Assembly (NCBI GenBank): GCA_018664485.1
Contig: JABJOE010000007.1
Span: 4,353 to 68,352 of the forward strand
Direction: 5' to 3'
Length of the DNA: 64,000 nt
Source of the DNA: Candidatus Uhrbacteria bacterium
GTDB lineage: Bacteria; Patescibacteriota; Patescibacteriia; UBA9934
A model generated the notes under the pieces. It was not told the origin of the DNA. It searched no databases and was given only the letters and a program-made list of their open reading frames with translations. Positions 6,195 through 61,921 of this stretch are shown piece after piece (position 1 is the stretch's first letter; every line of letters begins with the position of its first letter). The position numbers and the translations under genes were made by a program.

Positions 6195-7403
6195 ATGGCC
6201 TTCAAAAAACATTCTGCAGATAACGGCGACCATCTAGATGAAGCATTTTTTGTTGAACTTCTAAAACTCCCCACCTTCCCTTTCTACAGGCTAATTAGAC
6301 AAAACGCAGAGCAAGCAAAAGAACAGCGTGCCGCGTGGCTTAACGCAGGTACACCGCCAACATTTTTATATCCGGAAACTAAAGATTTTGATGCACTTAA
6401 ATATCTAGAAGCTGTTGAAAAATGTCGTGACAGTCTCCCTGATGGCCCGGCGTACATTCGCTCGCTCTACATCAAAAAACTCAACGAGCTAAAAATGCGC
6501 GCAGCCCTCGTACTTGCCATATCACATGGCGATGACCAAACAGTAACGCATCTCTCCCGAAAACTTTTTGGAAACCTCCGTCAAGATGCTGAAGAATTGA
6601 AAAAAGAATTTTCTTGTATGCTTGACCATGCAAATATTTTTCATACCCACACAGAACCAATCAACGCCGAAATGTTCACAGCCATGACACATAAAGTTTT
6701 AGATCACTACAAAATAGATGACTGGAAAGTAGCCTTATCTGACAAATCATCAATCAAAATCACACGAGGCAGACGCGCACGAAAGCCAGTTATCTATATT
6801 CCAACCAATTTAAAGATTTCAAAAGCTCGTGCAGCTAGACTGCTAACACACGAGATCGAAGTACACGCATTGCGTACCCAAAATGGTCGTCGCTCCCCCC
6901 TCCATATTCTTCACGTTGGTCTAAATGGATATATTCGAACAGACGAAGGCCTCGCAATTTATTATCAACAAAAAATCAGCAAAGAAAAACCCCAGCACGC
7001 GCCTGGCTTTTGGGATGCGTGGACATGCGCGCTTACGCAAACTGGTTCTTTTGCCGACACCTTTGCAATAATTTCAGATGCTCGCTCACAACTGGCGGCT
7101 GCAACTGGTGCGAAAGATGCGAAAGAGGTAGGTATAGACGCTGCATGGCGCCTCTGTGTTCGCGCGTATCGTGGCATTACAGATACAAGCACGTATGGCG
7201 TCGGATTTTTGCGTGGTCATATATATCGATCAGGACTTCTTGATATTACAGAGGCCGTTGACTGGCATGGAGAAGAAATCCTTGAAAAACTTTTTATCGG
7301 AAATATCGGACTTGAACATATTTCTATTTTTGAAAACCAAGAGCTACCAGAACCGCAGTTGCCAATGCTCGTAAGTAAATCTATCGTAAGAGATTTTTCG
7401 TAG
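6195..7403 (+). CDS. DUF1704 / 'QEGLA-motif' family protein (predicted metallopeptidase-like), here with HEIEVH and DEGLA motifs
   Basis: HEIEVH (an HExxH motif) is followed by TDEGLAIYYQQ, which matches the conserved architecture of DUF1704 (flavohemoglobin expression-modulating QEGLA protein) proteins. Confidence 0.5.
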   Translation: MAFKKHSADNGDHLDEAFFVELLKLPTFPFYRLIRQNAEQAKEQRAAWLNAGTPPTFLYPETKDFDALKYLEAVEKCRDSLPDGPAYIRSLYIKKLNELKMRAALVLAISHGDDQTVTHLSRKLFGNLRQDAEELKKEFSCMLDHANIFHTHTEPINAEMFTAMTHKVLDHYKIDDWKVALSDKSSIKITRGRRARKPVIYIPTNLKISKARAARLLTHEIEVHALRTQNGRRSPLHILHVGLNGYIRTDEGLAIYYQQKISKEKPQHAPGFWDAWTCALTQTGSFADTFAIISDARSQLAAATGAKDAKEVGIDAAWRLCVRAYRGITDTSTYGVGFLRGHIYRSGLLDITEAVDWHGEEILEKLFIGNIGLEHISIFENQELPEPQLPMLVSKSIVRDFS

Positions 7404-11775: not shown

Positions 11776-14283
11776 TTAGCTTCCCTCACCCACAGCGCAA
11801 TGAGTTGCCAGGCCCGCGGTACTGGAAGTCCAGTTACCCGTAGCGATGATGGCATACTCAGTGGTCGTCGATGCCGCCGTCCACGATGCGCAGATGAAGT
11901 TCTCGGTACCAGCTGCGATGGACTCGTTGGCCATGTAGTCGCCCAATACATCGTACTCGGTGGCAGTCCAGATCCGAAGACCTTGACCATCCACTCCGTC
12001 ATTGACGATCACGCAGCAGATTGCGTAGTGGTGTCCCGAGGTAACCGAGAAGCCTGAGCTTCCAAGAGCCTCGTTGTCGACACCTTGTCCGATTGCAGGA
12101 TACAGCAACTCGATCGAGTAAAAGTCACCAGCTCCCGGGTAGGAAGTGTAGGTGAATTCCACGACCGAGGAGGAGGTGGTTCCAGACGAACTAGCATACG
12201 GCTCCCAATTACTCAAGCCACCCTCAAAGGTGGAGTCACCCTCTTCGTCAGGGAAGAGATTGACCGCCGCCGAGTCGAAGGTGAAGGATCCTGCATCTGT
12301 CGACACCGTCTCCCCCGCCCTGTCCCAGACACCGTCGCAGTCCTGATCCCAGGCGCTGTACGGATTGGCAGCCTCGCCAGGATTGACGAAGTCGACCTCA
12401 TCGTTGCAATCGGTTCCAGAGGAATCGACGCACGTTTCATCGACGTATCCGTCACCATCTGCGTCGGTCAAGCCGTCAGTGGCACTCCCCGAGCAATCCA
12501 TGTCCCGCGTGTCGCCGCAGTCCTCCGTTGCCGATGAGTTGACCTCATCGTCATCGTCGTCGCAGTCGGTTCCGCCGTAGGAATCATGATCCTCTCCATC
12601 GAGGTCCTGATCGTAGTCGTTTGCGCCGTCACAGTCGCTGTCCACACCGTCGTACCACGTGTCAGTGGCCGAGGTGTTGACCGCGGAGTCAGTGTCGTCG
12701 CAGTCGGTACCGGAATACGCGTCCGAGTCCTCTCCATCACTGTCCGCATCGTAGTCTGACGCACCATCACAATCCTGATCCACACCGTCGTACCACGTCT
12801 CCGTGGCGCCAGGGTTGATCGAGGAATCCGTGTCATCGCAGTCATCACCGGACGAACCGGTACATACCTCATCGATGTAGGAGTCGCCGTCAACGTCGGT
12901 CGTGCCATCAAGGGCACTACCAGAACAGTCCAAGTCCCGCGTGTCGCCGCAGTCCTCCGTTGCCGATGAGTTGACCTCATCGTCAACGTCGTCGCAGTCG
13001 GTTCCGCCGTAGGAATCATGGTCCTCTCCATCGAGGTCCTGATCGTAGTCCGATGCACCGTCACAGTCACTGTCCACACCGTCGTACCACGTCTCGGTGG
13101 CGCCAGGGTAAACAGTAGAGTCAGCGTCGTCGCAGTCGGTACCGCCATCACAGCTGTCATGGACATACGAATCAGCGTCCACATCCGTGGCACCATCACT
13201 GGCACCGCCGGAACAATCGAGATCCCGCGAATCATCGCAGTCCTCGCTGGCACCCGGGTTGACCTCAACGTCGGTGTCGTCGCAGTCGCTGTCGTCGAGC
13301 CCGTAGCCTGACGGCTGCGAGCAAGAGTCCTGACTGGCCGCCGCGTCGCCATAGCCATCCTCGTCGGTGTCTGCGAAGTAGGTCGTCCCACTACTGACAT
13401 CCCAACTCGAATCAAGTGAGTCGACGTAGCCATCACAGTCATCATCGACCGTGTTGCAGACTTCAGTCGCGCCGGGGTGAACCTCGGCGTTCCCGTCGTC
13501 GCAGTCGGTTCCGTACGGAGAGTAGCCACCCTCGACACCATCACACGATGCGATCTCCTCACCATCGAAGTCTGCGTCACCGTAGAGGTCACCATCCCCA
13601 TCGGGGTACTGGATAAGCACGATGTCGTCGACATCCTCTGCGTCGGTCAGACCGTCACAGTCGTTGTCGAGTTCATCACACACCTCAATGGCATAGAGGT
13701 TGACGCTAGGCTCGGTGTCGTCGCAGTCATCTGCATTGTCGACATAGCCGATCTCGAGCGTACACGACTCATACGGAGCGTCGGGATCACCGTAGCGATC
13801 ACCATCCACATCCGGATAGGAGGTCGTGGTCACACCTTCGTCGACCTCGCCGTCGCAGTTATTGTCCTGCTCGTCACACACCTCGATGGCGCCCGGATTG
13901 ATGTCACCGTCGTCGTCGTTGCAGTCACCGCTCTGTGCACTGAAACCCTCGGGGGTCTCGCAAGCCAGTTGCGTTGACGTATCGTCGCCGAAGCCGTCAG
14001 CATCGCTATCTTCGAAGAAGTTCGTCTGAACGTCCTCATCGGTGGCGCCGTCACAGTCGTTGTCTTTCCCGTCGCACACCTCGGTGGCATCAGGATTGAC
14101 AGCGGCGTTGCTGTCGTCGCAGTCGTCGTCGGCGTTGAAGCCATCGCCGTCGTCGTCAGCACCACTCGGCGTGTCAGTGTCCGCGATCTGGGCTCTGAAA
14201 GCCGGAAGACCATCAGCGCCATCCAGAGCGCATGCGCTCAGGAGCGCAACGAGCACCATCTGCAGGATTGATCGAAGTCTCAT
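11776..14283 (-). CDS. secreted Asp/Cys-rich repeat protein (MopE-like 'putative metal-binding' / myxococcus cysteine-rich repeats: D-x-D-G-x-x-D-C-D-D ... P-G-A-x-E-x-C-D-G-x-D-N-D-C-D-G), encoded on a high-GC island
   Basis: The likely start is the Met of MRLRSILQMVLVALLSACALDG at 14283, which has a GGAG 5 nt upstream. The longer ORF back to 14385 is probably an upstream extension. At least 12 repeats of 'DCDDxDxxVNPGATExCDGxDNDCDG' are present. GC content is about 60% against about 44% in flanking genes, and GAC/TGC/GGC codon choice is used throughout. Confidence 0.7.
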   Translation of the reverse strand: MRLRSILQMVLVALLSACALDGADGLPAFRAQIADTDTPSGADDDGDGFNADDDCDDSNAAVNPDATEVCDGKDNDCDGATDEDVQTNFFEDSDADGFGDDTSTQLACETPEGFSAQSGDCNDDDGDINPGAIEVCDEQDNNCDGEVDEGVTTTSYPDVDGDRYGDPDAPYESCTLEIGYVDNADDCDDTEPSVNLYAIEVCDELDNDCDGLTDAEDVDDIVLIQYPDGDGDLYGDADFDGEEIASCDGVEGGYSPYGTDCDDGNAEVHPGATEVCNTVDDDCDGYVDSLDSSWDVSSGTTYFADTDEDGYGDAAASQDSCSQPSGYGLDDSDCDDTDVEVNPGASEDCDDSRDLDCSGGASDGATDVDADSYVHDSCDGGTDCDDADSTVYPGATETWYDGVDSDCDGASDYDQDLDGEDHDSYGGTDCDDVDDEVNSSATEDCGDTRDLDCSGSALDGTTDVDGDSYIDEVCTGSSGDDCDDTDSSINPGATETWYDGVDQDCDGASDYDADSDGEDSDAYSGTDCDDTDSAVNTSATDTWYDGVDSDCDGANDYDQDLDGEDHDSYGGTDCDDDDDEVNSSATEDCGDTRDMDCSGSATDGLTDADGDGYVDETCVDSSGTDCNDEVDFVNPGEAANPYSAWDQDCDGVWDRAGETVSTDAGSFTFDSAAVNLFPDEEGDSTFEGGLSNWEPYASSSGTTSSSVVEFTYTSYPGAGDFYSIELLYPAIGQGVDNEALGSSGFSVTSGHHYAICCVIVNDGVDGQGLRIWTATEYDVLGDYMANESIAAGTENFICASWTAASTTTEYAIIATGNWTSSTAGLATHCAVGEGS

Positions 14284-14493
14284 GTCATCTCCTCGGAAGG
14301 GGAAAATGGGTTGGTTGCCTGGAAGTCTTTTTAGGAGCAAATCGCCCCTTAGCGCCTCCTCCCTATTTAGGGAGCAGAACGCCACAATGTACAGTGTACG
14401 CGCCTAATTGTAAAGAGCAAGTAAACAACTGCCCTCAATCCCCCGCCAGGCGTTTGACAGTATTTTCAGCAAATGATAGACTCTCGTCGTTCT

Positions 14494-29463: not shown

Positions 29464-31272
29464 TTATACGTCCAGTCCGCGCTCTATTGCCTTTTGAGAC
29501 TGCCGAGCCTCAGCATCAGCGCGAGCCCAATGATATTGATTGTGGTTAACAAATTTCAGCATATCCGTCTGATTCAGCCACGGAGCCTTCTCACGGAGAG
29601 CTATATCGATCTTCTGACAGACACGACGATAGTTTGGATGCCCCTGCGCTACCGTACGGAGCTCAAGCAAATGCTGAGCTTCACGCAGATTCATTCCAAT
29701 TGAAAAACGAATATTGTGACCAAATAGTACTACGTATTCAGCAACTTTCGGCCCTAGAGTCTGCTCAATCTGATCATACAAATCGCTCACCTCACGTTCA
29801 AGTGCGATACATGCATCTTTCATTCCGATAATATCAACGTCCTCTGGAATAACAAATCCCAAATGTGGATTTGGACGCTGCCACTGTAAAGTACACATTC
29901 GGTGACGATGTAGGTCTCGGAAAACTCCAAAGTCGCAAACCATTTCTGTAAAAATCGGATACCCATGTTCAAAACCACGAACAGCACGATCACGCCTAAT
30001 CTCACGACTTCCAACTGCATTGTGAAGAAGCTTATAGAATGTTTCGTCAGGCAAAGCCACGATCAACGACATTAATGCTTGATAATCAGTACGTGCATAC
30101 GGGAAATATGCTGCAGCCAACATATGTTCTGCACCAACACGATCACGAGTGATTACGTTTGGCGTATTCATCACAACCACTTCTTCGCGCGACCCTCCCC
30201 ACACAAGTGCCTCGGGAAGATACGTTCGCATATCCTCCACCATCTGGCGATCGACATCCATCCAAAACTTCACACCACCACGGTCAGCACGCTTAACGTA
30301 CTTTGGAATGACCTTGTTCAAGGTGTCGTGCAGACGGTTTGCAATATCTTTAAATTCATTTCGCCCTTCCGAATACAGCCGCTTCAATAAATGCTCAAAA
30401 GTACGACCGTTAGCCACCATGGCCACATTCGTCAAAGTCGCAGCAGGCAAGAAAATTCGTGCCGTATCACAAGCGCGAGTGCGAATATCAAATGTATATG
30501 ATCGTTTGAAGGCCTTACGTTGCTTGTCGTCATCCAACTGATCAAATCTGTACTTGGTGTCATCATTCGGCTTTAGAGCGTACTCGACCTCCTCAATGGG
30601 CTTGAGGCCCTTGTAATACTCCTGGAGCTTGTGCGCCAAATCGACATACAACTCAAAACAACGATCCATCACATCTATGTACTTTCCAGCCAGAGGTGAA
30701 TTCATGATCGCTGGATCACGATAGTAGTACCAGTTATCAGTAATAGGATCTTTTTCCGTGTACAAAACGTATCGACTGGACTGCTCAATATATGCTCCCA
30801 ATCGTCTATCTTCGATCATCTTTGTAGCAACGTTTGAAACTGAGTTGAAAAGTACTGTCGAGAATTCCAACTCCTGCACCGAATCATCTCCGTACTGAAT
30901 CAAAATTCGCTCAATCAATCTATCCAACTTTCCTTCCCGCAATCCACCAATCTCCACACCGAGTTCTTTTGCTTCTTTTTCGTCCGTTACAAGAAACTCT
31001 TTTACCAAAACATCAATGATGGTTCCTGGAATTCGACTCTGTCGTGCAAGCATCGCTCCTACCAATCCTGAAAGCTTACGTCCGTCGATTGCCGTAATGT
31101 TACTTTCCGGTGAAAGAAAGAACGGTCGAGCCATCTCAAACACTTTCTCTAAAATAAATGAACGATACGGCAACGTCTGCCCATCCCCCATACAGACCAC
31201 TCGCTCTCCGGTTTCTTGATCCACAAAAACAGCACAACGATCATTTAGTTCTAGATTCTCGATTGGTTGCAT
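29464..31272 (-). CDS. thyX: tandem-domain flavin-dependent thymidylate synthase ThyX-like protein (two Thy1 repeats fused in one 602-aa chain)
   Basis: The C-terminal repeat carries the ThyX signature RHR (FRDLHRHRMCTLQWQ) and NLREAQHLLELRTVAQ. The N-terminal repeat has a degenerate RR..SSRY (EDRRLGAYIEQSSRYV) and NGRTFEHLLKRL. Confidence 0.55.
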   Translation of the reverse strand: MQPIENLELNDRCAVFVDQETGERVVCMGDGQTLPYRSFILEKVFEMARPFFLSPESNITAIDGRKLSGLVGAMLARQSRIPGTIIDVLVKEFLVTDEKEAKELGVEIGGLREGKLDRLIERILIQYGDDSVQELEFSTVLFNSVSNVATKMIEDRRLGAYIEQSSRYVLYTEKDPITDNWYYYRDPAIMNSPLAGKYIDVMDRCFELYVDLAHKLQEYYKGLKPIEEVEYALKPNDDTKYRFDQLDDDKQRKAFKRSYTFDIRTRACDTARIFLPAATLTNVAMVANGRTFEHLLKRLYSEGRNEFKDIANRLHDTLNKVIPKYVKRADRGGVKFWMDVDRQMVEDMRTYLPEALVWGGSREEVVVMNTPNVITRDRVGAEHMLAAAYFPYARTDYQALMSLIVALPDETFYKLLHNAVGSREIRRDRAVRGFEHGYPIFTEMVCDFGVFRDLHRHRMCTLQWQRPNPHLGFVIPEDVDIIGMKDACIALEREVSDLYDQIEQTLGPKVAEYVVLFGHNIRFSIGMNLREAQHLLELRTVAQGHPNYRRVCQKIDIALREKAPWLNQTDMLKFVNHNQYHWARADAEARQSQKAIERGLDV

Positions 31273-56576: not shown

Positions 56577-57536
56577 ATGGGCGCAACTGCACTTGACGTA
56601 AACTACGCCGCGGGAAATCGACGATCGCAAATGAGATCACGAAACCCGTCACAAGCAAAGCCACGACCACGTGGCCAAGTTATTGACGCCTCATCACGAT
56701 TTACGTCTAACCGAACTCGGAAGCAGGCCGGACGGAACCCGTCTATCTCCGCAGATGTCATTCCACTTAACGCCGCACGGATCCCCGACAAAAAGAATGC
56801 CACCAAAGAACAGGCGCATAAGCGCAAGATGGCATCAAACCGGCATATGGACAAAATGCGTGCCCAGCACTTCGGCCTTCCAAAAGAGCTTGATGACTAT
56901 TCAAGTGACTTGACCGGAGGAGAAATGGACCAAGTTAAGGGATGGTATGGAGATGAGCTTAGAGGTATGGGAATGGACCGACTACTTGAAAAACAACAAG
57001 CTGGAGGACAAGGGTTAGTGCGCAATGCCGTAAACAGAAAAATTGAAAAGCTTAAAGAGCAAGCAAAGGAAAAGGTTAAGAAAAAAGCTAAAGAGGCTTT
57101 CAAAAAAGCGCTTAAAAAAACATTTGCATCTGGTACGAAGAAAACAGTTTGGAGTGCTATCGACCAGGGAGCTGTAGTCGAAGTTGAGGGTGTCGCTATT
57201 GAGACATGGTTCAGCTCAGGTGCCCTTCTAACCTCGTATCAAGGACTGACCGGCGCGCTACACGGTGGAAAACCCTTCATTCCAGAAGGGACAGTTATAT
57301 CCTGGCTAGAACCGCCTCCACTCTCGCACCCATCTGGAAAAGCACCACAAAATGCAGCAGAAAGCCTCGGAATGATGATACAGCTGTATGACCTATTCAT
57401 GTGGCTTCTTATTCCTATATATTGGTTTGCTGTTGTCGCCGTTATTCTTCTTATGCATTTAGCCGTTGCATACACTACATTTATGGTCCTTATGCCAATT
57501 GTAGGGTTCGCTTATCTATTATCTCTCGTTACCTAA
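56577..57536 (+). CDS. hypothetical protein: basic disordered N-terminus, Lys-rich coiled region, two C-terminal TM helices
   Basis: No family was recognised. The start is uncertain, with several in-frame Met. Confidence 0.35.
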   Translation: MGATALDVNYAAGNRRSQMRSRNPSQAKPRPRGQVIDASSRFTSNRTRKQAGRNPSISADVIPLNAARIPDKKNATKEQAHKRKMASNRHMDKMRAQHFGLPKELDDYSSDLTGGEMDQVKGWYGDELRGMGMDRLLEKQQAGGQGLVRNAVNRKIEKLKEQAKEKVKKKAKEAFKKALKKTFASGTKKTVWSAIDQGAVVEVEGVAIETWFSSGALLTSYQGLTGALHGGKPFIPEGTVISWLEPPPLSHPSGKAPQNAAESLGMMIQLYDLFMWLLIPIYWFAVVAVILLMHLAVAYTTFMVLMPIVGFAYLLSLVT

Positions 57537-57539
57537 AAT

Positions 57540-58751
57540 ATGTATTTGTCTCCACGTTCTAAATTTCTACTAATCCTCGTCGGCTTCATCGGTACAGTCA
57601 TTCTAATCGGATGGCTTATTGTAGCTCTTCTATTTCGTGGCAGCCCTGTAATCGAAGAAGAAATTGAAGATGACACTACGCAAGATGAAGATGGTCGTCT
57701 TTCGCTAGCAGACGAAATTGAACAGAGAGAATCACAAGATGAAGACAGTGCAACCGGCCAGTTACCCTCATCAGTTGCAGACGGTGGAGAAACATTCACG
57801 CAGAGGCTTACATCATCTGCTATCACAGAGCCAACTATCATCGGAGATACAATTCTTTTCTATGATCCTCGCGATGGACTGTTTTACATGATCGATAGCA
57901 GTGGAGAGCTTATAGCTATAACCGACCAATCATTTGCGGGAGCAGAGACAGTCACAATTGCCAACTCCGGAACCAAGGCAGCGCTCGAATTCCCTGACGG
58001 CTCAAACATTATCTATGACTTAGAGAGCGGTGAGCAGACTACCCTACCGAGTCACTGGGAAGAATTCGAATTCTCAGAAGATGGAGAAGAGGTAGCAAAC
58101 AAAAGTCTTACCGTTGACTCTAATTCAAACGCACTTATCGTAAGCAGTAGTGAAGGCTCACAAACTCAAGTAGTTGCCGGTCTTGGAAAGAACGAAGCAA
58201 AAGTAACCGTAAGTGTGTCTCCAAACAACAACGTTGTAGCATTTTCCGAAACAGGAGAAACACAATCTGGATTCGGCCGAGCACAAATCTATCTTATCGA
58301 CTACAACGGTGAAGCTATGGGCAGCTTAATCGTTGAAGGTGGAAACTTCTCAGCGATCTGGTCTCCAAGCGGAAACGATATTCTCTACTCAGTGTCACTC
58401 GCATCTGCCGGAGATACACCATCACTCTGGTACACGAATGCTACCGGGTCGGTTGGGTCAGACCGAGAGCGAATTGATTTAAATACATGGGTTGAAAAAT
58501 GTACATTTAAAGACGAGGCAACCATCATATGTGCAGCACCTCGAGAAGTGACAGCAGGATCTGGCCTTGATCACCGACTCATTGATGGTACTGATGATGT
58601 TTATGAGGTAACGCTTGCTACTGGTCGCGTTAAGCTACTTGCATCCCCAGTGCTCGATATTCAGATGGAAAACTTGAGCGTGAGTGACGACGAATCAATT
58701 CTCTATTTCACAGACAGTCTTGGGCGACTTAACTTTATGCGATTAAAATAA
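57540..58751 (+). CDS. membrane-anchored protein with TolB/PD40-like beta-propeller repeats
   Basis: An N-terminal TM helix (LLILVGFIGTVILIGWLIVALLF) is present. The repeated segments 'ALEFPDGSNIIYD', 'VSVSPNNNVVAFSETGE' and 'IWSPSGNDILYSV' resemble PD40 blades. Confidence 0.4.
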   Translation: MYLSPRSKFLLILVGFIGTVILIGWLIVALLFRGSPVIEEEIEDDTTQDEDGRLSLADEIEQRESQDEDSATGQLPSSVADGGETFTQRLTSSAITEPTIIGDTILFYDPRDGLFYMIDSSGELIAITDQSFAGAETVTIANSGTKAALEFPDGSNIIYDLESGEQTTLPSHWEEFEFSEDGEEVANKSLTVDSNSNALIVSSSEGSQTQVVAGLGKNEAKVTVSVSPNNNVVAFSETGETQSGFGRAQIYLIDYNGEAMGSLIVEGGNFSAIWSPSGNDILYSVSLASAGDTPSLWYTNATGSVGSDRERIDLNTWVEKCTFKDEATIICAAPREVTAGSGLDHRLIDGTDDVYEVTLATGRVKLLASPVLDIQMENLSVSDDESILYFTDSLGRLNFMRLK

Positions 58752-58761
58752 ACAGCTCCGT

Positions 58762-59418
58762 ATGGTGGAACGCACGCCTCTCATTTTCCTCATTTTTGCA
58801 GGACTAATCTTCATGGTCTTCGTCATGATGCTTATTTCTGTACTCCCACATCAGACAGTCGTTTTTACAGATGAAGAGGATGAAATATCTGAAGGGATAC
58901 AGGAATATGACCCCGTATTAGGGGACAAAAATGCGCCTATCGTCATCACGCATTATAGTGATTTTCTTTGCGAGTCCTGTGCCGAAACCGCAACTTCCCT
59001 TTCAAATATTGTAGAAGACTATCCAGATGAGATAGCTATCGTCTGGAAGGATTTTCCAAATGTATCAGCTCACCCACTTGCGCCCGGCGCGTCAATCGCG
59101 GCCCGCTGTGCCGGTGAACAAGGAGAGTTCTGGGCTTATCACGACCTTCTGTTCACCTACCAACGAGACATCACAACCGAAACAGCAGCTGAATATTACA
59201 TGCTTATATCTGAAGAACTCGACCTAGGTTCGTGGAGGTTCAATCGCTGTGTAAACAAACAACAAACTTTTGAAGACCTCGAAGCGTCCTATGCCGACGC
59301 CAATGCCTTGGAGTTGACAGCGTCCCCTACAATTACAGTAAACGACGAACGATTCTCCGGATCCATGTCAGAAAATGAAATTCGATCGGTTATATTGAAC
59401 CTTGAACTTACTTTCTAA
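58762..59418 (+). CDS. DsbA-like thiol:disulfide oxidoreductase (thioredoxin fold, CxxC = CESC), membrane-anchored
   Basis: An N-terminal TM helix is present. HYSDFLCESCAETA is the active site. The gene is directly upstream of two Cys-rich secreted proteins. Confidence 0.65.
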   Translation: MVERTPLIFLIFAGLIFMVFVMMLISVLPHQTVVFTDEEDEISEGIQEYDPVLGDKNAPIVITHYSDFLCESCAETATSLSNIVEDYPDEIAIVWKDFPNVSAHPLAPGASIAARCAGEQGEFWAYHDLLFTYQRDITTETAAEYYMLISEELDLGSWRFNRCVNKQQTFEDLEASYADANALELTASPTITVNDERFSGSMSENEIRSVILNLELTF

Positions 59419-60686
59419 TGCGAATCTTCCTACTCACACTACTCCTTCTTATCGTACCGACTTTTGCGTTTGGGGAAGAGCTTTCGGATTGTGATACAGA
59501 TACCGTTCAATGCATTTGTACCCCTGAAGATCTAGAACCAGCAGCGTACCCGTCACCAATAACCGAAACAGAAGACTGTCAAAGTTACTGTTCACTCGTC
59601 CAATCAATTCACCCGGAAGTAACAGGCTACTCAGTTCAATGCTCTATCAGTGGGTCTATTACCACCATTGGTCAAGGAAATTCTGATGGGATCATGAACG
59701 ATGGTTTCAACAACTATTACTATGAAGATCCTCAATTGGGTGTTGAAATTCCTGGCCTTGAATTCTCGGGAGCATACCAAGACGACGATACCTTCGTAAG
59801 TAACTATCTGGGTGAATACGTCGCCGCTGTATACGCCTGGCTTATTCCAACAGCCTCCCTACTAGTTGTCCTTGTTATAATGGTTGGAGGATTGCAATGG
59901 ATGCTCGCGCGCGGTGACTCGGGGCGAATAGGAAAAGCTAAAGAGCGAATCAAGAACGCTGTGACAGGACTAATCCTACTTATGGGTGCCTATACCTTTA
60001 CATATATTGTAGACCCTTCCCTTTCAAGCTTCGATCCATTCACAACAAACCTAGTTGCACAAAAACTTGAAGAAGATACTTCAGGTGCTGGTGAAGGTAT
60101 CTCAGGTGGTGCTATTGCTGCTGACTGTGAAGAAGCTGTTACAAACGCACTGGGATCCGGTGCCTGTACCATGTCGGAATCCCTAGGTTCTCCAACGGGT
60201 GACGTCGTTTCATGTAACTACCACTTTGTAGACAAAAGTTATAACTGGGCTAACATAAACTCTCTAGACTATGTCGGACAGTGGGACTCATCAGTCTACG
60301 CACCTTTTACCGGAACTGTCACTCACTTCTTCGACTCAGCAGGAAACGCTTGCGGAAACGGTATCAAGCTGTCCGGATCAGGTGGTGCTGTATACCTCTG
60401 TCACTTGAAAGACTGGGGTGGAACAACAAGTGGACAATCTGTGAGTAAGGGTGATGTTATTGGGCATGTCGGTGGACGATGCTGCGCAGGTGAAAACCCA
60501 CCGAGCGATTGGTCGGCAGCATCATACTGCACATATACCGGAACAGAGTGTTCAACCGGAAACTCACAGGAGAGTTGTGATTGCCAAGCGTGGGAACAAT
60601 CTGGAAACACGACCGGAGGACATGTACACTTAACATATATCTCAGGCGGAAATATGATTGCCTGTTTTGATGAATCAAACTACTAG
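59418..60686 (+). CDS. secreted Cys-rich protein, paralog A: signal peptide + 8-Cys N-domain + pilin/holin-like double-TM hairpin (…GGLQWMLARGDSGRIGKAKERIKNAVTGLILLMG…) + C-terminal M23 (LytM)-like peptidase domain carrying a ~45-aa Cys-rich insertion
   Basis: The M23-like motifs are YHFVD, GNGIKLSGSGGAVYLCHLKD, GDVIGHVGG and GGHVHLTYI. The insertion RCCAGENPPSDWSAASYCTYTGTECSTGNSQESCDCQAW lies between the last two motifs. The N-terminal and hairpin regions are shared with the next ORF. Confidence 0.5.
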   Translation: MRIFLLTLLLLIVPTFAFGEELSDCDTDTVQCICTPEDLEPAAYPSPITETEDCQSYCSLVQSIHPEVTGYSVQCSISGSITTIGQGNSDGIMNDGFNNYYYEDPQLGVEIPGLEFSGAYQDDDTFVSNYLGEYVAAVYAWLIPTASLLVVLVIMVGGLQWMLARGDSGRIGKAKERIKNAVTGLILLMGAYTFTYIVDPSLSSFDPFTTNLVAQKLEEDTSGAGEGISGGAIAADCEEAVTNALGSGACTMSESLGSPTGDVVSCNYHFVDKSYNWANINSLDYVGQWDSSVYAPFTGTVTHFFDSAGNACGNGIKLSGSGGAVYLCHLKDWGGTTSGQSVSKGDVIGHVGGRCCAGENPPSDWSAASYCTYTGTECSTGNSQESCDCQAWEQSGNTTGGHVHLTYISGGNMIACFDESNY

Positions 60687-60694
60687 ATAATCCT

Positions 60695-61921
60695 ATGCGT
60701 CGTCTACTAATCATTTTATTATTCCCACTTCTATTGCCGACAGCTGTACTGGCTGGCGATTTTGATAGTTGTGACGATACCCCCGTCTGCACCTGTGAGC
60801 CGACAGACTCATATCCTGCAGATTCTGCTGACATTGAAAGTATCGACGATTGCCAAGACCATTGCACTTACTCAGAATCGTTAGATGAAACTATCACTGG
60901 ATATAGCATTCAATGCACAGTCAGTGGAGCTACAACAGTGCTAAGTCAAGGAGAACTTGAATCCATTGACGAAGCGCTTACAGAAATCACGGAAACGTCA
61001 GATCCGGTACTTGGTGTTGAAATTCCAGGCCTTGAATTCTCACCAGCATATACAGACGGAGAGTCCGTTGTAAGTAACTATATTGGAGAATATATTGAAG
61101 CAGTTTACATTTGGATCGTGCCAGTCGCCTCCCTACTTGCCGTACTGGTACTGATGATTGCAGGCATGCAGTACATGCTTGCACGCGGAGACTCCGGGCG
61201 GATTGCAAAAGCAAAAGAACGTGTTAAAAATGCAATTACCGGTGTAGTGCTACTACTTGGGATAGTAACTATGGCGAGCATGGTAGACCCATCTGTCCTC
61301 ACATACGACAGCCTAAAATTATCCTATATTGATGCTGAACAATACGTAGATGAATCGCCTGATACATCCGGATCGGTGGACTTCGGATCAGTATATATCC
61401 CGCCATCAAGCCAAATGCTATGTGACCCACAATATTCTATAAGCGAGATCGCCATGTCAACTGTAGGCTGGGTAACGTATCGATATGGTGGAAAAGGAAC
61501 TGCGCCACCCTATACTGCAGAAACAAAAATAGATCCAAGCGGACGGCCATACAGTGAGTACTGTCCTGACGAAACGCTATGTCTTGATTGTTCTGGATAT
61601 GCTGATTTCATTCGCCAATGTGCCGGTCTCGCTGCCGCAAGTGAATCCGGAGGGACAGCCGCTATATTTGATACTGCAAATGGCGCTGTAGAAATTGATA
61701 CTTGGGATCCGGATGGTACAGTAAACGGGACAGCACTTGTCCCAGGTGACATGATCGGATATCCATCTAGCCACGTCTTGATCTACATCGGAGACGGTAA
61801 CATTGCCGACTCACATGGTTCGGGACGAGAGCCTGGTGAAGCGATTGGAGTGTATGAATTATCATATGGGGTAAACCTCTATCTGTCACAGGGAAAAACT
61901 CCGCTAGTCAGACGAAGGTAA
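60695..61921 (+). CDS. secreted Cys-rich protein, paralog B: same signal peptide/Cys-domain/double-TM hairpin (…AGMQYMLARGDSGRIAKAKERVKNAITGVVLLLG…) + C-terminal NlpC/P60-type cysteine peptidase domain
   Basis: The NlpC/P60 catalytic-Cys context is CLDCSGYADFIRQCAG, and the His context is SHVLIYIGDGNIADSHG. There is about 30-nt near-identity with paralog A around GGTGTTGAAATTCC(A/T)GGCCTTGAATTCTC, encoding LGVEIPGLEFS. Confidence 0.55.
   Translation: MRRLLIILLFPLLLPTAVLAGDFDSCDDTPVCTCEPTDSYPADSADIESIDDCQDHCTYSESLDETITGYSIQCTVSGATTVLSQGELESIDEALTEITETSDPVLGVEIPGLEFSPAYTDGESVVSNYIGEYIEAVYIWIVPVASLLAVLVLMIAGMQYMLARGDSGRIAKAKERVKNAITGVVLLLGIVTMASMVDPSVLTYDSLKLSYIDAEQYVDESPDTSGSVDFGSVYIPPSSQMLCDPQYSISEIAMSTVGWVTYRYGGKGTAPPYTAETKIDPSGRPYSEYCPDETLCLDCSGYADFIRQCAGLAAASESGGTAAIFDTANGAVEIDTWDPDGTVNGTALVPGDMIGYPSSHVLIYIGDGNIADSHGSGREPGEAIGVYELSYGVNLYLSQGKTPLVRRR

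Follow-up and report, generated by a model that had tools for sequence, protein, structure and literature searches.

Two adjacent genes in a 64,000-nt stretch of DNA from a Candidatus Uhrbacteria bacterium (the window, whose positions are used below unless stated otherwise) encode paralog A (422 aa; 59418-60686, + strand) and paralog B (408 aa; 60695-61921, + strand; NCBI HON52_03125), which both join a pilin hairpin of type IV secretion systems (T4SSs; PF18895) to a peptidoglycan hydrolase module, of M23/LytM type in A (PF01551) and of NlpC/P60 type in B. In our assessment, A and B are probably modular T4SS pilins, which tether VirB1/PrgK-like wall hydrolases to the T4SS and are oxidised by a translationally coupled DsbA-like protein. 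This view draws on the identified domains and their folds, the conserved catalytic residues, the expected topology, the homology of the hairpin to T4SS-linked pilins, and synteny with the genes for the DsbA-like protein, a 403-aa membrane-anchored protein (prop403) and VirB4. An earlier reading made from the letters alone, without database searches (the sequence-only reading), had delimited the two open reading frames (ORFs) exactly and had raised a VirB1-like hydrolase fused to its pilin as a possibility, which gains support from the VirB2-type hairpin, the hydrolase folds, a T4SS core 7.7 kb away and an operon of a related genome (L009).

The hairpin spans aa 130-198 in A (59805-60011, + strand), where a first transmembrane (TM) helix, the basic loop MLARGDSGRIGKAKERIKNA and a second TM helix follow one another, and aa 129-197 in B (61079-61285, + strand). 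Both hairpins are defined by PF18895 and by AlphaFold2 (AF2) models, which place the helices at 130-163 and 168-198 in A and at 129-162 and 167-197 in B. The sequence MLARGDSGRI (A 162-171, B 161-170), in its longer form MLARGDSGRIxKAKERxKNAxTG, lies between the helices, and the loop holds six K/R versus two D/E. Scores for PF18895 (T4SS_pilin) exceed the curated cutoff of 26.6 in both proteins, reaching 33.2 bits in A (residues 138-197) and 42.5 bits in B; PF04956 (TrbC/VirB2) gave a second, weak match only (E 0.17-0.73), and a sub-threshold NCBIfam match pointed to the Mycoplasma integrative and conjugative element (ICE) pilin-like conjugal transfer protein family. Moreover, the hairpin profile matches pilins linked to VirB4, and the hairpin together with the preceding motif is the most conserved part of the family, with a mean pairwise identity of 40-43% versus 22-23% for the N- and C-domains. 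These profile matches identify the hairpin as a genuine T4SS pilin module, in line with the TrbC/VirB2-type pilin that the sequence-only reading had suspected.

The resemblance of A and B extends beyond the hairpin, residues ~15-225 being 48% identical (E 7e-63); the C-domains are not related to each other. Both begin with a hydrophobic N-terminal signal sequence, as had been read from the letters, at aa 1-20 of A (MRIFLLTLLLLIVPTFAFGE; 59418-59477, + strand; hydrophobic segment 1-19) and at aa 1-20 of B (MRRLLIILLFPLLLPTAVLA-G; 60695-60754, + strand), and an N-terminal L.LP....A pattern is kept across the family. The conserved Cys domain that follows occupies aa 21-90 in both proteins and is located at 59478-59687 (+ strand) in A, with Cys 25, 32, 34, 54, 58 and 75, and at 60755-60964 (+ strand) in B, with Cys 26, 32, 34, 53, 57 and 74, so that the earlier count of six to eight narrows to exactly six in each. 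In A this N-domain is predicted by AF2 to be a small beta-alpha-beta-beta ectodomain; in B the model contains a strand at 31-35, a helix at 50-63 and strands at 69-76 and 79-87, with a predicted local distance difference test (pLDDT) score of 79-89. Profile positions C13/C15/C35/C39 are invariant in 22 members, and the profile of N-domain plus hairpin found no meaningful match among PDB sequences.

The motif LGVEIPGLEFS, also recognised in the earlier reading, is found at aa 107-117 of A (59736-59768, + strand) and aa 106-116 of B (61010-61042, + strand), where it represents a family-wide P.L.V.IPGL.F signature ahead of the hairpin; its positions P105/L107/I111/P112 are nearly invariant in 52 homologs. 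At the DNA level, 28 of 30 nt are identical between the paralogs (59739-59768 vs 61013-61042, encoding GVEIPGLEFS), a near-identity which had been noticed before and attributed to recent duplication or gene conversion. The near-identity itself holds, but that explanation was rejected, as the 48% identity of A and B is about the divergence of orthologs, the longest exact DNA run is 14 nt (71% identity over 255 nt), and the pair is already present in the related locus L006. Judged from this comparison, the match is a trace of purifying selection on the motif and thus offers no evidence of recent duplication or conversion.

Enzyme modules and their proposed DsbA partner

The C-module of A (aa ~235-422; 60120-60683, + strand; 12 Cys), assigned from Pfam, fold and homolog alignment, matches PF01551 Peptidase_M23 with 30.3 bits (cutoff 28.7; residues 283-353). 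With the AF2 model of A (pLDDT 66), Foldseek retrieved 21 PDB M23 chains (E<=1e-3, probability 1.0), the matches including Csd1/Csd2 (3.7e-5), lysostaphin, LytM and ShyA, and the LytM domain of PrgK (8s0u), an enterococcal T4SS hydrolase, was matched at E 5e-3. The Cys-rich loop of ~45 aa that had been seen to interrupt this domain (aa 354-399; 60477-60614, + strand) lies inside the M23 fold and splits GHVGGRCC (349-356) from GGHVH (400-404), an insertion conserved in 12/12 A-type homologs. In Helicobacter pylori Csd3 (4rny), to which A was aligned, GRVGS and GLSTGPHLH are contiguous, and chain residues 291/293 flank profile positions 361/406. Residues D284, H329, H402 and H404, and also H269, are invariant in all 12 A-type members.

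The C-module of B (aa ~240-408; 61412-61918, + strand) was assigned from its fold and candidate catalytic residues. It has a papain-like NlpC/P60 fold with a Cys-His-polar triad, for which C299 (DCSG), H360 (SHVLIY) and D372/H374 (DSHG) are the candidates; the NlpC/P60 domain expected in B is therefore present in fold and triad, although its Pfam score stays below the gathering cutoff, as discussed below. Twelve Cys follow the hairpin in A and five in B, and the four non-catalytic ones of B could form two disulfides.

Directly ahead of A lies the gene for a DsbA-like thiol-disulfide oxidoreductase of 218 aa (58762-59418, + strand), which matches PF13462 Thioredoxin_4 (82 bits) and PF01323 DSBA (28 bits; cutoff 25.6) and carries its CxxC motif as CESC at residues 70-73 behind an N-terminal TM segment, in agreement with the membrane-anchored protein described earlier. 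The DsbA stop codon and the start codon of A share 1 nt (TAATG). The earlier reading had proposed a survey of genomic context for co-occurrence of DsbA with the fusions, and such adjacency turned out to be conserved across genomes: the same overlap occurs in the P0012 locus, L003, L004 and L006, gaps of 1-9 nt separate the two genes in L007 and L008, and an independent DsbA-pilin pair is found at a different locus on a Magasanikbacteria contig (L022). Because DsbA is translationally coupled to A, keeps its position and has this independent counterpart, it would be the evident oxidant in the formation of up to nine disulfides.

Taken together, these features suggest that A and B are exported via a cleavable signal peptide and inserted as a two-helix hairpin with the basic loop in the cytoplasm. 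Given the signal peptide and the six K/R of the loop, the ~100-aa six-Cys N-domain and the ~210-aa C-terminal enzyme would both lie outside the membrane. There, the upstream membrane-anchored DsbA would form disulfides from the six Cys of each N-domain, 12 more in A and the four non-catalytic ones in B, and the C-modules would cleave peptidoglycan peptides, A as an M23/LytM-type enzyme and B as an NlpC/P60 cysteine peptidase. The hairpin may dock these enzymes to the T4SS, either in a membrane pool of pilins at the VirB6 platform or as polymerised pilus subunits with outward termini. With the enzymes docked in this way, the wall-cutting role of VirB1/PrgK/CwlT-type hydrolases would be delivered where the conduit crosses peptidoglycan, in the own wall and possibly in that of the host. 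A VirB1-like role on the producer's wall is favoured by the missing immunity genes and by the operon position in L009, and the fast exchange of C-modules at a single locus speaks for adaptation to a foreign (host) wall.

Family, link to the T4SS and rival explanations

The profile of N-domain and hairpin was searched against 1.84 billion representatives (clusters at 50% identity), and the family amounts to 292 members at E<=1e-30, 9,981 at <=1e-10 and 52,346 at <=1e-3. Among the best 150 members, a stretch of 80 or more residues precedes the motif in 142 (median 6 Cys), and one of 150 or more residues follows the hairpin in 138 (median length 228 residues, median 8 Cys). A Pfam scan covered 105 of the 138 new representatives and detected T4SS_pilin in 104 of them, as well as in 47 of 52 closer homologs. 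The C-domains among these 105 comprise Peptidase_C39_2 (21), Peptidase_C70 (13), Peptidase_M23 (12), NLPC_P60 (10), M15_4/VanY/M15 (~7), SLT (2), and one each of Amidase_2, glucosaminidase and 3D; every recognisable one is a peptidoglycan hydrolase, and the 52 closer homologs are similar.

Related loci were collected from a two-sequence alignment with strict patterns, by which 15 were recovered. The content of the syntenic locus varies among genomes, with M23 plus NlpC/P60 in the present one, M23 plus C39_2 in L006, C39_2 alone in L007, M23 alone in L008 and L014, an NlpC-like module alone in the P0012 genome, and two N-domain-less pilins (C39-like and VanY-like) without DsbA in L021. The exchange has a sharp swap point after the second TM helix, since B and C39_2-type proteins share 55-80% identity to residue ~200 and 0-35% thereafter. 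Searches of B by tblastn against 72,556 plasmids for a plasmid or ICE origin and against 50,697 phage records for a phage origin yielded no match.

Further members of the family were also observed. A third modular pilin on the same contig, P0024 (HON52_03465; L001:7389-8999), is 536 aa long, has 18 Cys after the hairpin and no recognisable C-domain, and sits between SecG and UvrA, an arrangement kept in L015, L017, L018 and L020, whose pilins have 28-31 Cys; the ~950-aa gene beside such pilins was considered as a functional partner and rejected, because it is UvrA. As well, "poly-pilins" (P0098, P0123, P0094, P0158, P0130 and P0139) carry 2-6 tandem PF18895-type hairpins per polypeptide, with six of them in the 552 aa of P0098. 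Five metagenome-assembled genomes from TPA assemblies (L010, L013, L014, L016 and L018) are titled "uncultured Gammaproteobacteria bacterium", a label that is probably wrong because their gene order is that of the Uhrbacteria locus.

Profile scans of the window proteins detected no T4SS ATPase or channel genes, and the statement of the sequence-only reading that the window has no other T4SS genes is literally true. A VirB4/TraC-like/PrgI cluster of the same genome, however, begins ~5.6 kb past the window end and extends to ~8.7 kb (~69603-72699 in window-equivalent positions, - strand; L005:16650-19844), with VirB4 starting 7.7 kb after the B stop (~69.6 kb). Beyond RadA, RecG and a few small genes, the order is a 184-aa gene, VirB4 (640 aa; DUF87/P-loop_TraG), a TraC-like gene (PF26593), PrgI (PF12666, VirB3-like) and a gene of >649 aa; VirB6 was not identified among the T4SS genes listed for this cluster, and the gene after PrgI could encode a VirB6-like channel protein. 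A VirB4 cluster is likewise nearby in the P0012 locus, L007 and L008, and thus lies within 6-9 kb in four independent genomes.

Homology also ties the fusions to VirB4 operons. In L009, an operon beside dnaA has the order PrgI, TraC-like, VirB4, x340, a 535-aa pilin-NlpC/P60 fusion and x421, and the fusion shares 36% identity with B across hairpin and C-domain. Among the loci, only this VirB4 operon contains a fusion; its genes are individually orthologous to those of the L023 operon, in which the slot is taken by a plain pilin. The profile of motif and hairpin matches that 201-aa pilin inside the L023 VirB4 operon (E 2e-16), as well as six short pilins beside PrgI/TraC-like/VirB4 in the Saccharibacteria locus L024 (E 1e-9 to 1.5e-13), and the signature GGLxY..S.GDSG...AK..I..A..GL is common to the family and the Saccharibacteria pilins. 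In addition, a profile of prop403 orthologs matches the genes directly 3' of the pilin in both operons, x510 of L023 (E 9.4e-10) and x421 of L009 (E 5e-8). From these homologies, the prop403-DsbA-pilin(s) block resembles part of a T4SS operon that has been moved away from the rest.

Several observations count against the T4SS interpretation. A and B exceed every characterised VirB2 pilin in size by a factor of 3-4; with ~100 aa ahead of the hairpin and ~210 aa behind it, they fall outside the 50-150 aa of small-subunit pilins. The module is flanked by housekeeping genes (Clp ATPase, RadA), and the VirB4 cluster is non-adjacent, being 7.7 kb off on the opposite strand with RadA, RecG and others between. 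VirB4 is absent within 10 kb of the P0024 type (SecG/UvrA), of a pilin-SLT fusion (L019) and of L022. As for the enzymes, B scores 16.8 bits against PF00877 NLPC_P60 (E 0.0068), below the cutoff of 23, while relatives of the same subfamily pass it (29.8 bits for the L009 protein and 25.9 bits for P0053). In all A-type members the His of the canonical HxxxD is I/V/L (I280 in A), so that A could be non-canonical or even inactive. The invariant H269 (CNYH), which sits 15 residues upstream of D284, might substitute for this His; with D284, H329, H402 and H404 invariant as well, the alignment makes the catalytic competence of A likely, not certain.

The genomic surroundings also suggest that A and B might be housekeeping autolysins for wall remodelling or daughter-cell separation, in which a pilin-derived hairpin was exapted as a plain anchor with no T4SS link left. 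The genes lie in a same-strand housekeeping run (LemA, M48, Clp ATPase, RadA), from which neither a promoter nor a terminator signal separates them, division and elongation classically involve M23 and NlpC/P60 hydrolases, gaps of 8 and 13 nt hold no immunity gene, and some family members lack VirB4 within 10 kb. Nevertheless, we regard this explanation as unlikely. The hairpin and its loop are conserved beyond the need of a passive anchor, orthologous fusions occur inside VirB4 operons, where prop403 also has homologs, VirB4 recurs at 6-9 kb in the four genomes named above, and swapping of M23, NlpC-P60 and C39-like modules at one locus among close relatives would be unexpected for an invariant own wall.

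That swapping is what polymorphic contact-dependent wall-lytic effectors would display, if they were directed against other cells only, used the N-domain and hairpin for delivery with an exchangeable C-terminal toxin, and were independent of T4SS and pilus biogenesis. The sharp identity break just after the second TM helix, the span of the C-domain repertoire over peptide, amide and glycan bonds, the variation of copy number and type per genome at one locus, and the delivery of peptidoglycan hydrolases by antibacterial T4SSs of Xanthomonadales (PMC6536674) are consistent with this idea. It appears improbable all the same, given that the spacers beside A and B are too short for an immunity gene and none follows the fusions in L006, L007 and L008, that A and B are Sec-exported integral membrane proteins whereas recognition of known T4SS effectors is cytoplasmic, and that the hosts of this lineage are not known, some hosts of Patescibacteria being archaea without peptidoglycan.

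The class II holin offered by the sequence-only reading as an alternative identity of the hairpin was rejected, and a phage-derived lysis cassette with such a hairpin fused to an endolysin is extremely improbable: a hairpin followed by a muralytic domain is superficially like a holin-endolysin pairing, and the C-domains match phrog_7767 metallo-endopeptidase (8.4e-6) and phrog_1015 tail lysin (4.7e-3), but these PHROG matches fall on the C-domains, as lysins, and no PHROG holin family or other holin profile matches the hairpin, which scores as T4SS_pilin behind a cleavable signal peptide and an extracellular N-domain, in a chromosomal locus that is conserved across genomes, has no phage genes nearby and found no counterpart in the phage records.

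Returning to modular T4SS pilins, a stronger form may be considered, in which A and B are structural and the only pilins of this T4SS, giving a pilus whose outer face is coated with hydrolases and six-Cys domains. We hold this to be doubtful, and the absence of a short pilin from the window and from the 20-kb stretch reaching VirB4 is compatible with it.

Surrounding genes and other features of the window

Upstream of DsbA lies prop403 (403 aa; 57540-58751, + strand), an N-terminally membrane-anchored protein with weak PD40, SGL and TolB matches (PD40 E 0.32, TolB E 8.5e-4). The PD40-propeller membrane protein that had been placed ahead of DsbA is thus confirmed in its membrane anchor and not in a firm PD40 assignment, and prop403 is probably a beta-propeller. 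Its orthologs (400-406 aa) occupy the same position in L003-L008, L011, L014 and L021. Before it stands unk319 (56577-57536, + strand), an ORF for a protein of 319 aa whose N-half is basic and disordered and whose C-terminal part contains TM segments; it is gene 1 of the conserved four-gene block and fast-evolving. Searches of Pfam, NCBIfam and PHROG gave no match for unk319, and no relation to the x340/x338 genes of the VirB4 operons was detected; in all type-1 loci the 403-aa gene is preceded by a gene in the unk319 position (177-345 aa).

The genes are tightly packed, with spacers of 3 nt between unk319 and prop403, 10 nt between prop403 and DsbA, -1 nt between DsbA and A (TAATG), 8 nt between A and B, and 13 nt between B and RadA, whose gene is directly 3' of B. 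The syntenic order is LemA-M48-Clp-unk-prop403-DsbA-[pilins]-RadA. A promoter and terminator scan returned chance level only, and no RNA family was found in the window by Rfam at gathering thresholds. In public annotation, A, in a truncated 330-aa gene call, is a "peptidoglycan DD-metalloendopeptidase family protein" and B is "hypothetical". This version of A (P0022), called from an internal start in one NCBI assembly, lacks the signal peptide and the 6-Cys N-domain and thereby hides the architecture; the 422-aa ORF is backed by JGI and by homologs.

Three further regions of the window were recorded. Positions 11776-14385 (- strand) form its sole high-GC stretch (GC content 0.59 vs ~0.45) and carry an 869-aa ORF with at least eight MopE-type Cys-rich "putative metal-binding" repeats (PF11617, 249.6 bits), and its neighbours are GT4 glycosyltransferases and a Wzy_C O-antigen-ligase-like gene. 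The product is another disulfide-rich surface protein and may be a further client of DsbA. A ThyX-like protein of 602 aa is encoded at 29464-31272 (- strand), with the Thy1 domain on residues 103-323 in two stretches and long flanking extensions. At 6195-7403 (+ strand), a 402-aa protein matches MATCAP (PF08014, 91 bits), whose namesake is a microtubule-associated tyrosine carboxypeptidase, and its gene adjoins those for a GHL15/FG-GAP surface protein and a CARDB-like protein.

Known systems and biological meaning

Candidatus Uhrbacteria belong to the Patescibacteria, class ABY1 in a published table (PMC12102498). An essential pilin array was described for the T4SS of Southlakia epibionticum (Wang et al. 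2023, PMC10633639), and pilin arrays were subsequently surveyed across the phylum (Quinonero-Coronel et al. 2025, PMC12102498). PF18895 hairpins and their association with the T4SS of Patescibacteria are therefore already known (described 2023-2025). What remains of the novelty claimed from the letters is the fusion itself, as the papers found describe no VirB2-type pilin joined to a peptidoglycan hydrolase. The PMC12102498 survey lists pilins and VirB1 homologs separately and does not mention fusions. Like A and B, the PF18895 pilins of Patescibacteria have a homologous hairpin and a signal peptide, occur as tandem paralogs of low mutual identity, and belong to an MPF-FATA-like T4SS with PrgI and VirB4. 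The Saccharibacteria pilins of L024 are 96-257 aa long and end with the hairpin, whereas A and B differ from the short pilins by a ~210-aa hydrolase after the hairpin, a 6-Cys domain before it, a distance of 7.7 kb from VirB4, and coupling to DsbA.

The VirB1-like hydrolases of monoderm T4SSs, represented by PrgK (pCF10), TraG (pIP501), CwlT (ICEBs1) and the hydrolases of Tn916 (Orf14) and C. difficile conjugative transposons (CTn), offer a second comparison. Of what defines them, the anchor and the hydrolase modules are present in A and B, and operon membership is seen in L009 only. They are held by a single N-terminal TM helix and combine their domains in one multidomain protein, whereas A and B are anchored by a VirB2-type hairpin behind a secreted N-domain and are disulfide-rich with a dedicated DsbA. 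Each polypeptide has one catalytic module, so the two genes would stand in for one multidomain VirB1-like protein.

VirB2-type propilins possess two TM helices with a short charged cytoplasmic loop and are extracted onto the VirB6 platform, and in the pilus the loop lines the lumen while both termini point outward (10.64898/2025.12.18.695078). PrgF shares with A and B a two-TM hairpin, a short charged loop and a monoderm T4SS, and its polymerisation on VirB6 has been proposed (ter Beek et al., 10.64898/2025.12.18.695078); unlike A and B, it is small and has no enzymatic module. The same study reported VirB2-like pilins to be essential in Gram-positive conjugation with a screen limited to 50-150 aa (10.64898/2025.12.18.695078), and modular pilins were missed by it because only proteins of this size were considered.

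"Modular pilins" are known for type IV pili only. Streptococcus sanguinis PilB (vWA) and PilC (lectin) likewise combine a pilin module with a bulky displayed module (PMC8179133, PMC9934059), but they form type 4 filaments with an N-terminal alpha-helix, and their modules are adhesive, not enzymatic. A last comparison is offered by the X-Tfes of Xanthomonadales. These substrates are soluble, reside in the cytoplasm, bear an XVIPCD signal at the C-terminus and have immunity proteins encoded next to them. A and B, in contrast, are Sec-exported membrane proteins without an adjacent immunity gene; the likeness lies in the coupling of a T4SS to peptidoglycan-degrading enzymes of varied bond specificity (PMC6536674).

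The passage of monoderm T4SSs through one or two thick walls is acknowledged as an unsolved problem (10.64898/2025.12.18.695078), and most Patescibacteria with VirB2 homologs have no recognisable VirB1 (PMC12102498). A pilin that itself carries the wall hydrolase would be a concrete and testable answer to wall crossing, and it fits the missing VirB1 in most Patescibacteria. The family, with at least 292 clusters at 50% identity, has interchangeable C-modules that span every peptidoglycan bond class, and the swapped modules are candidate determinants of host range. Surveys which are confined to small pilins (50-150 aa), or which score pilins and VirB1 separately, miss a whole class of T4SS components. 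According to previous work, the Patescibacteria T4SS is essential for epibiotic growth in one tested species, with a role that is "completely unknown" (PMC11665869). A pilus coated with hydrolases, if it exists, would act as a self-drilling conduit that passes first through the wall of the producer and next through that of the host, with an exchangeable C-module tuned to host peptidoglycan chemistry, and would provide a physical mechanism by which the essential T4SS of Patescibacteria reaches the host cytoplasm.

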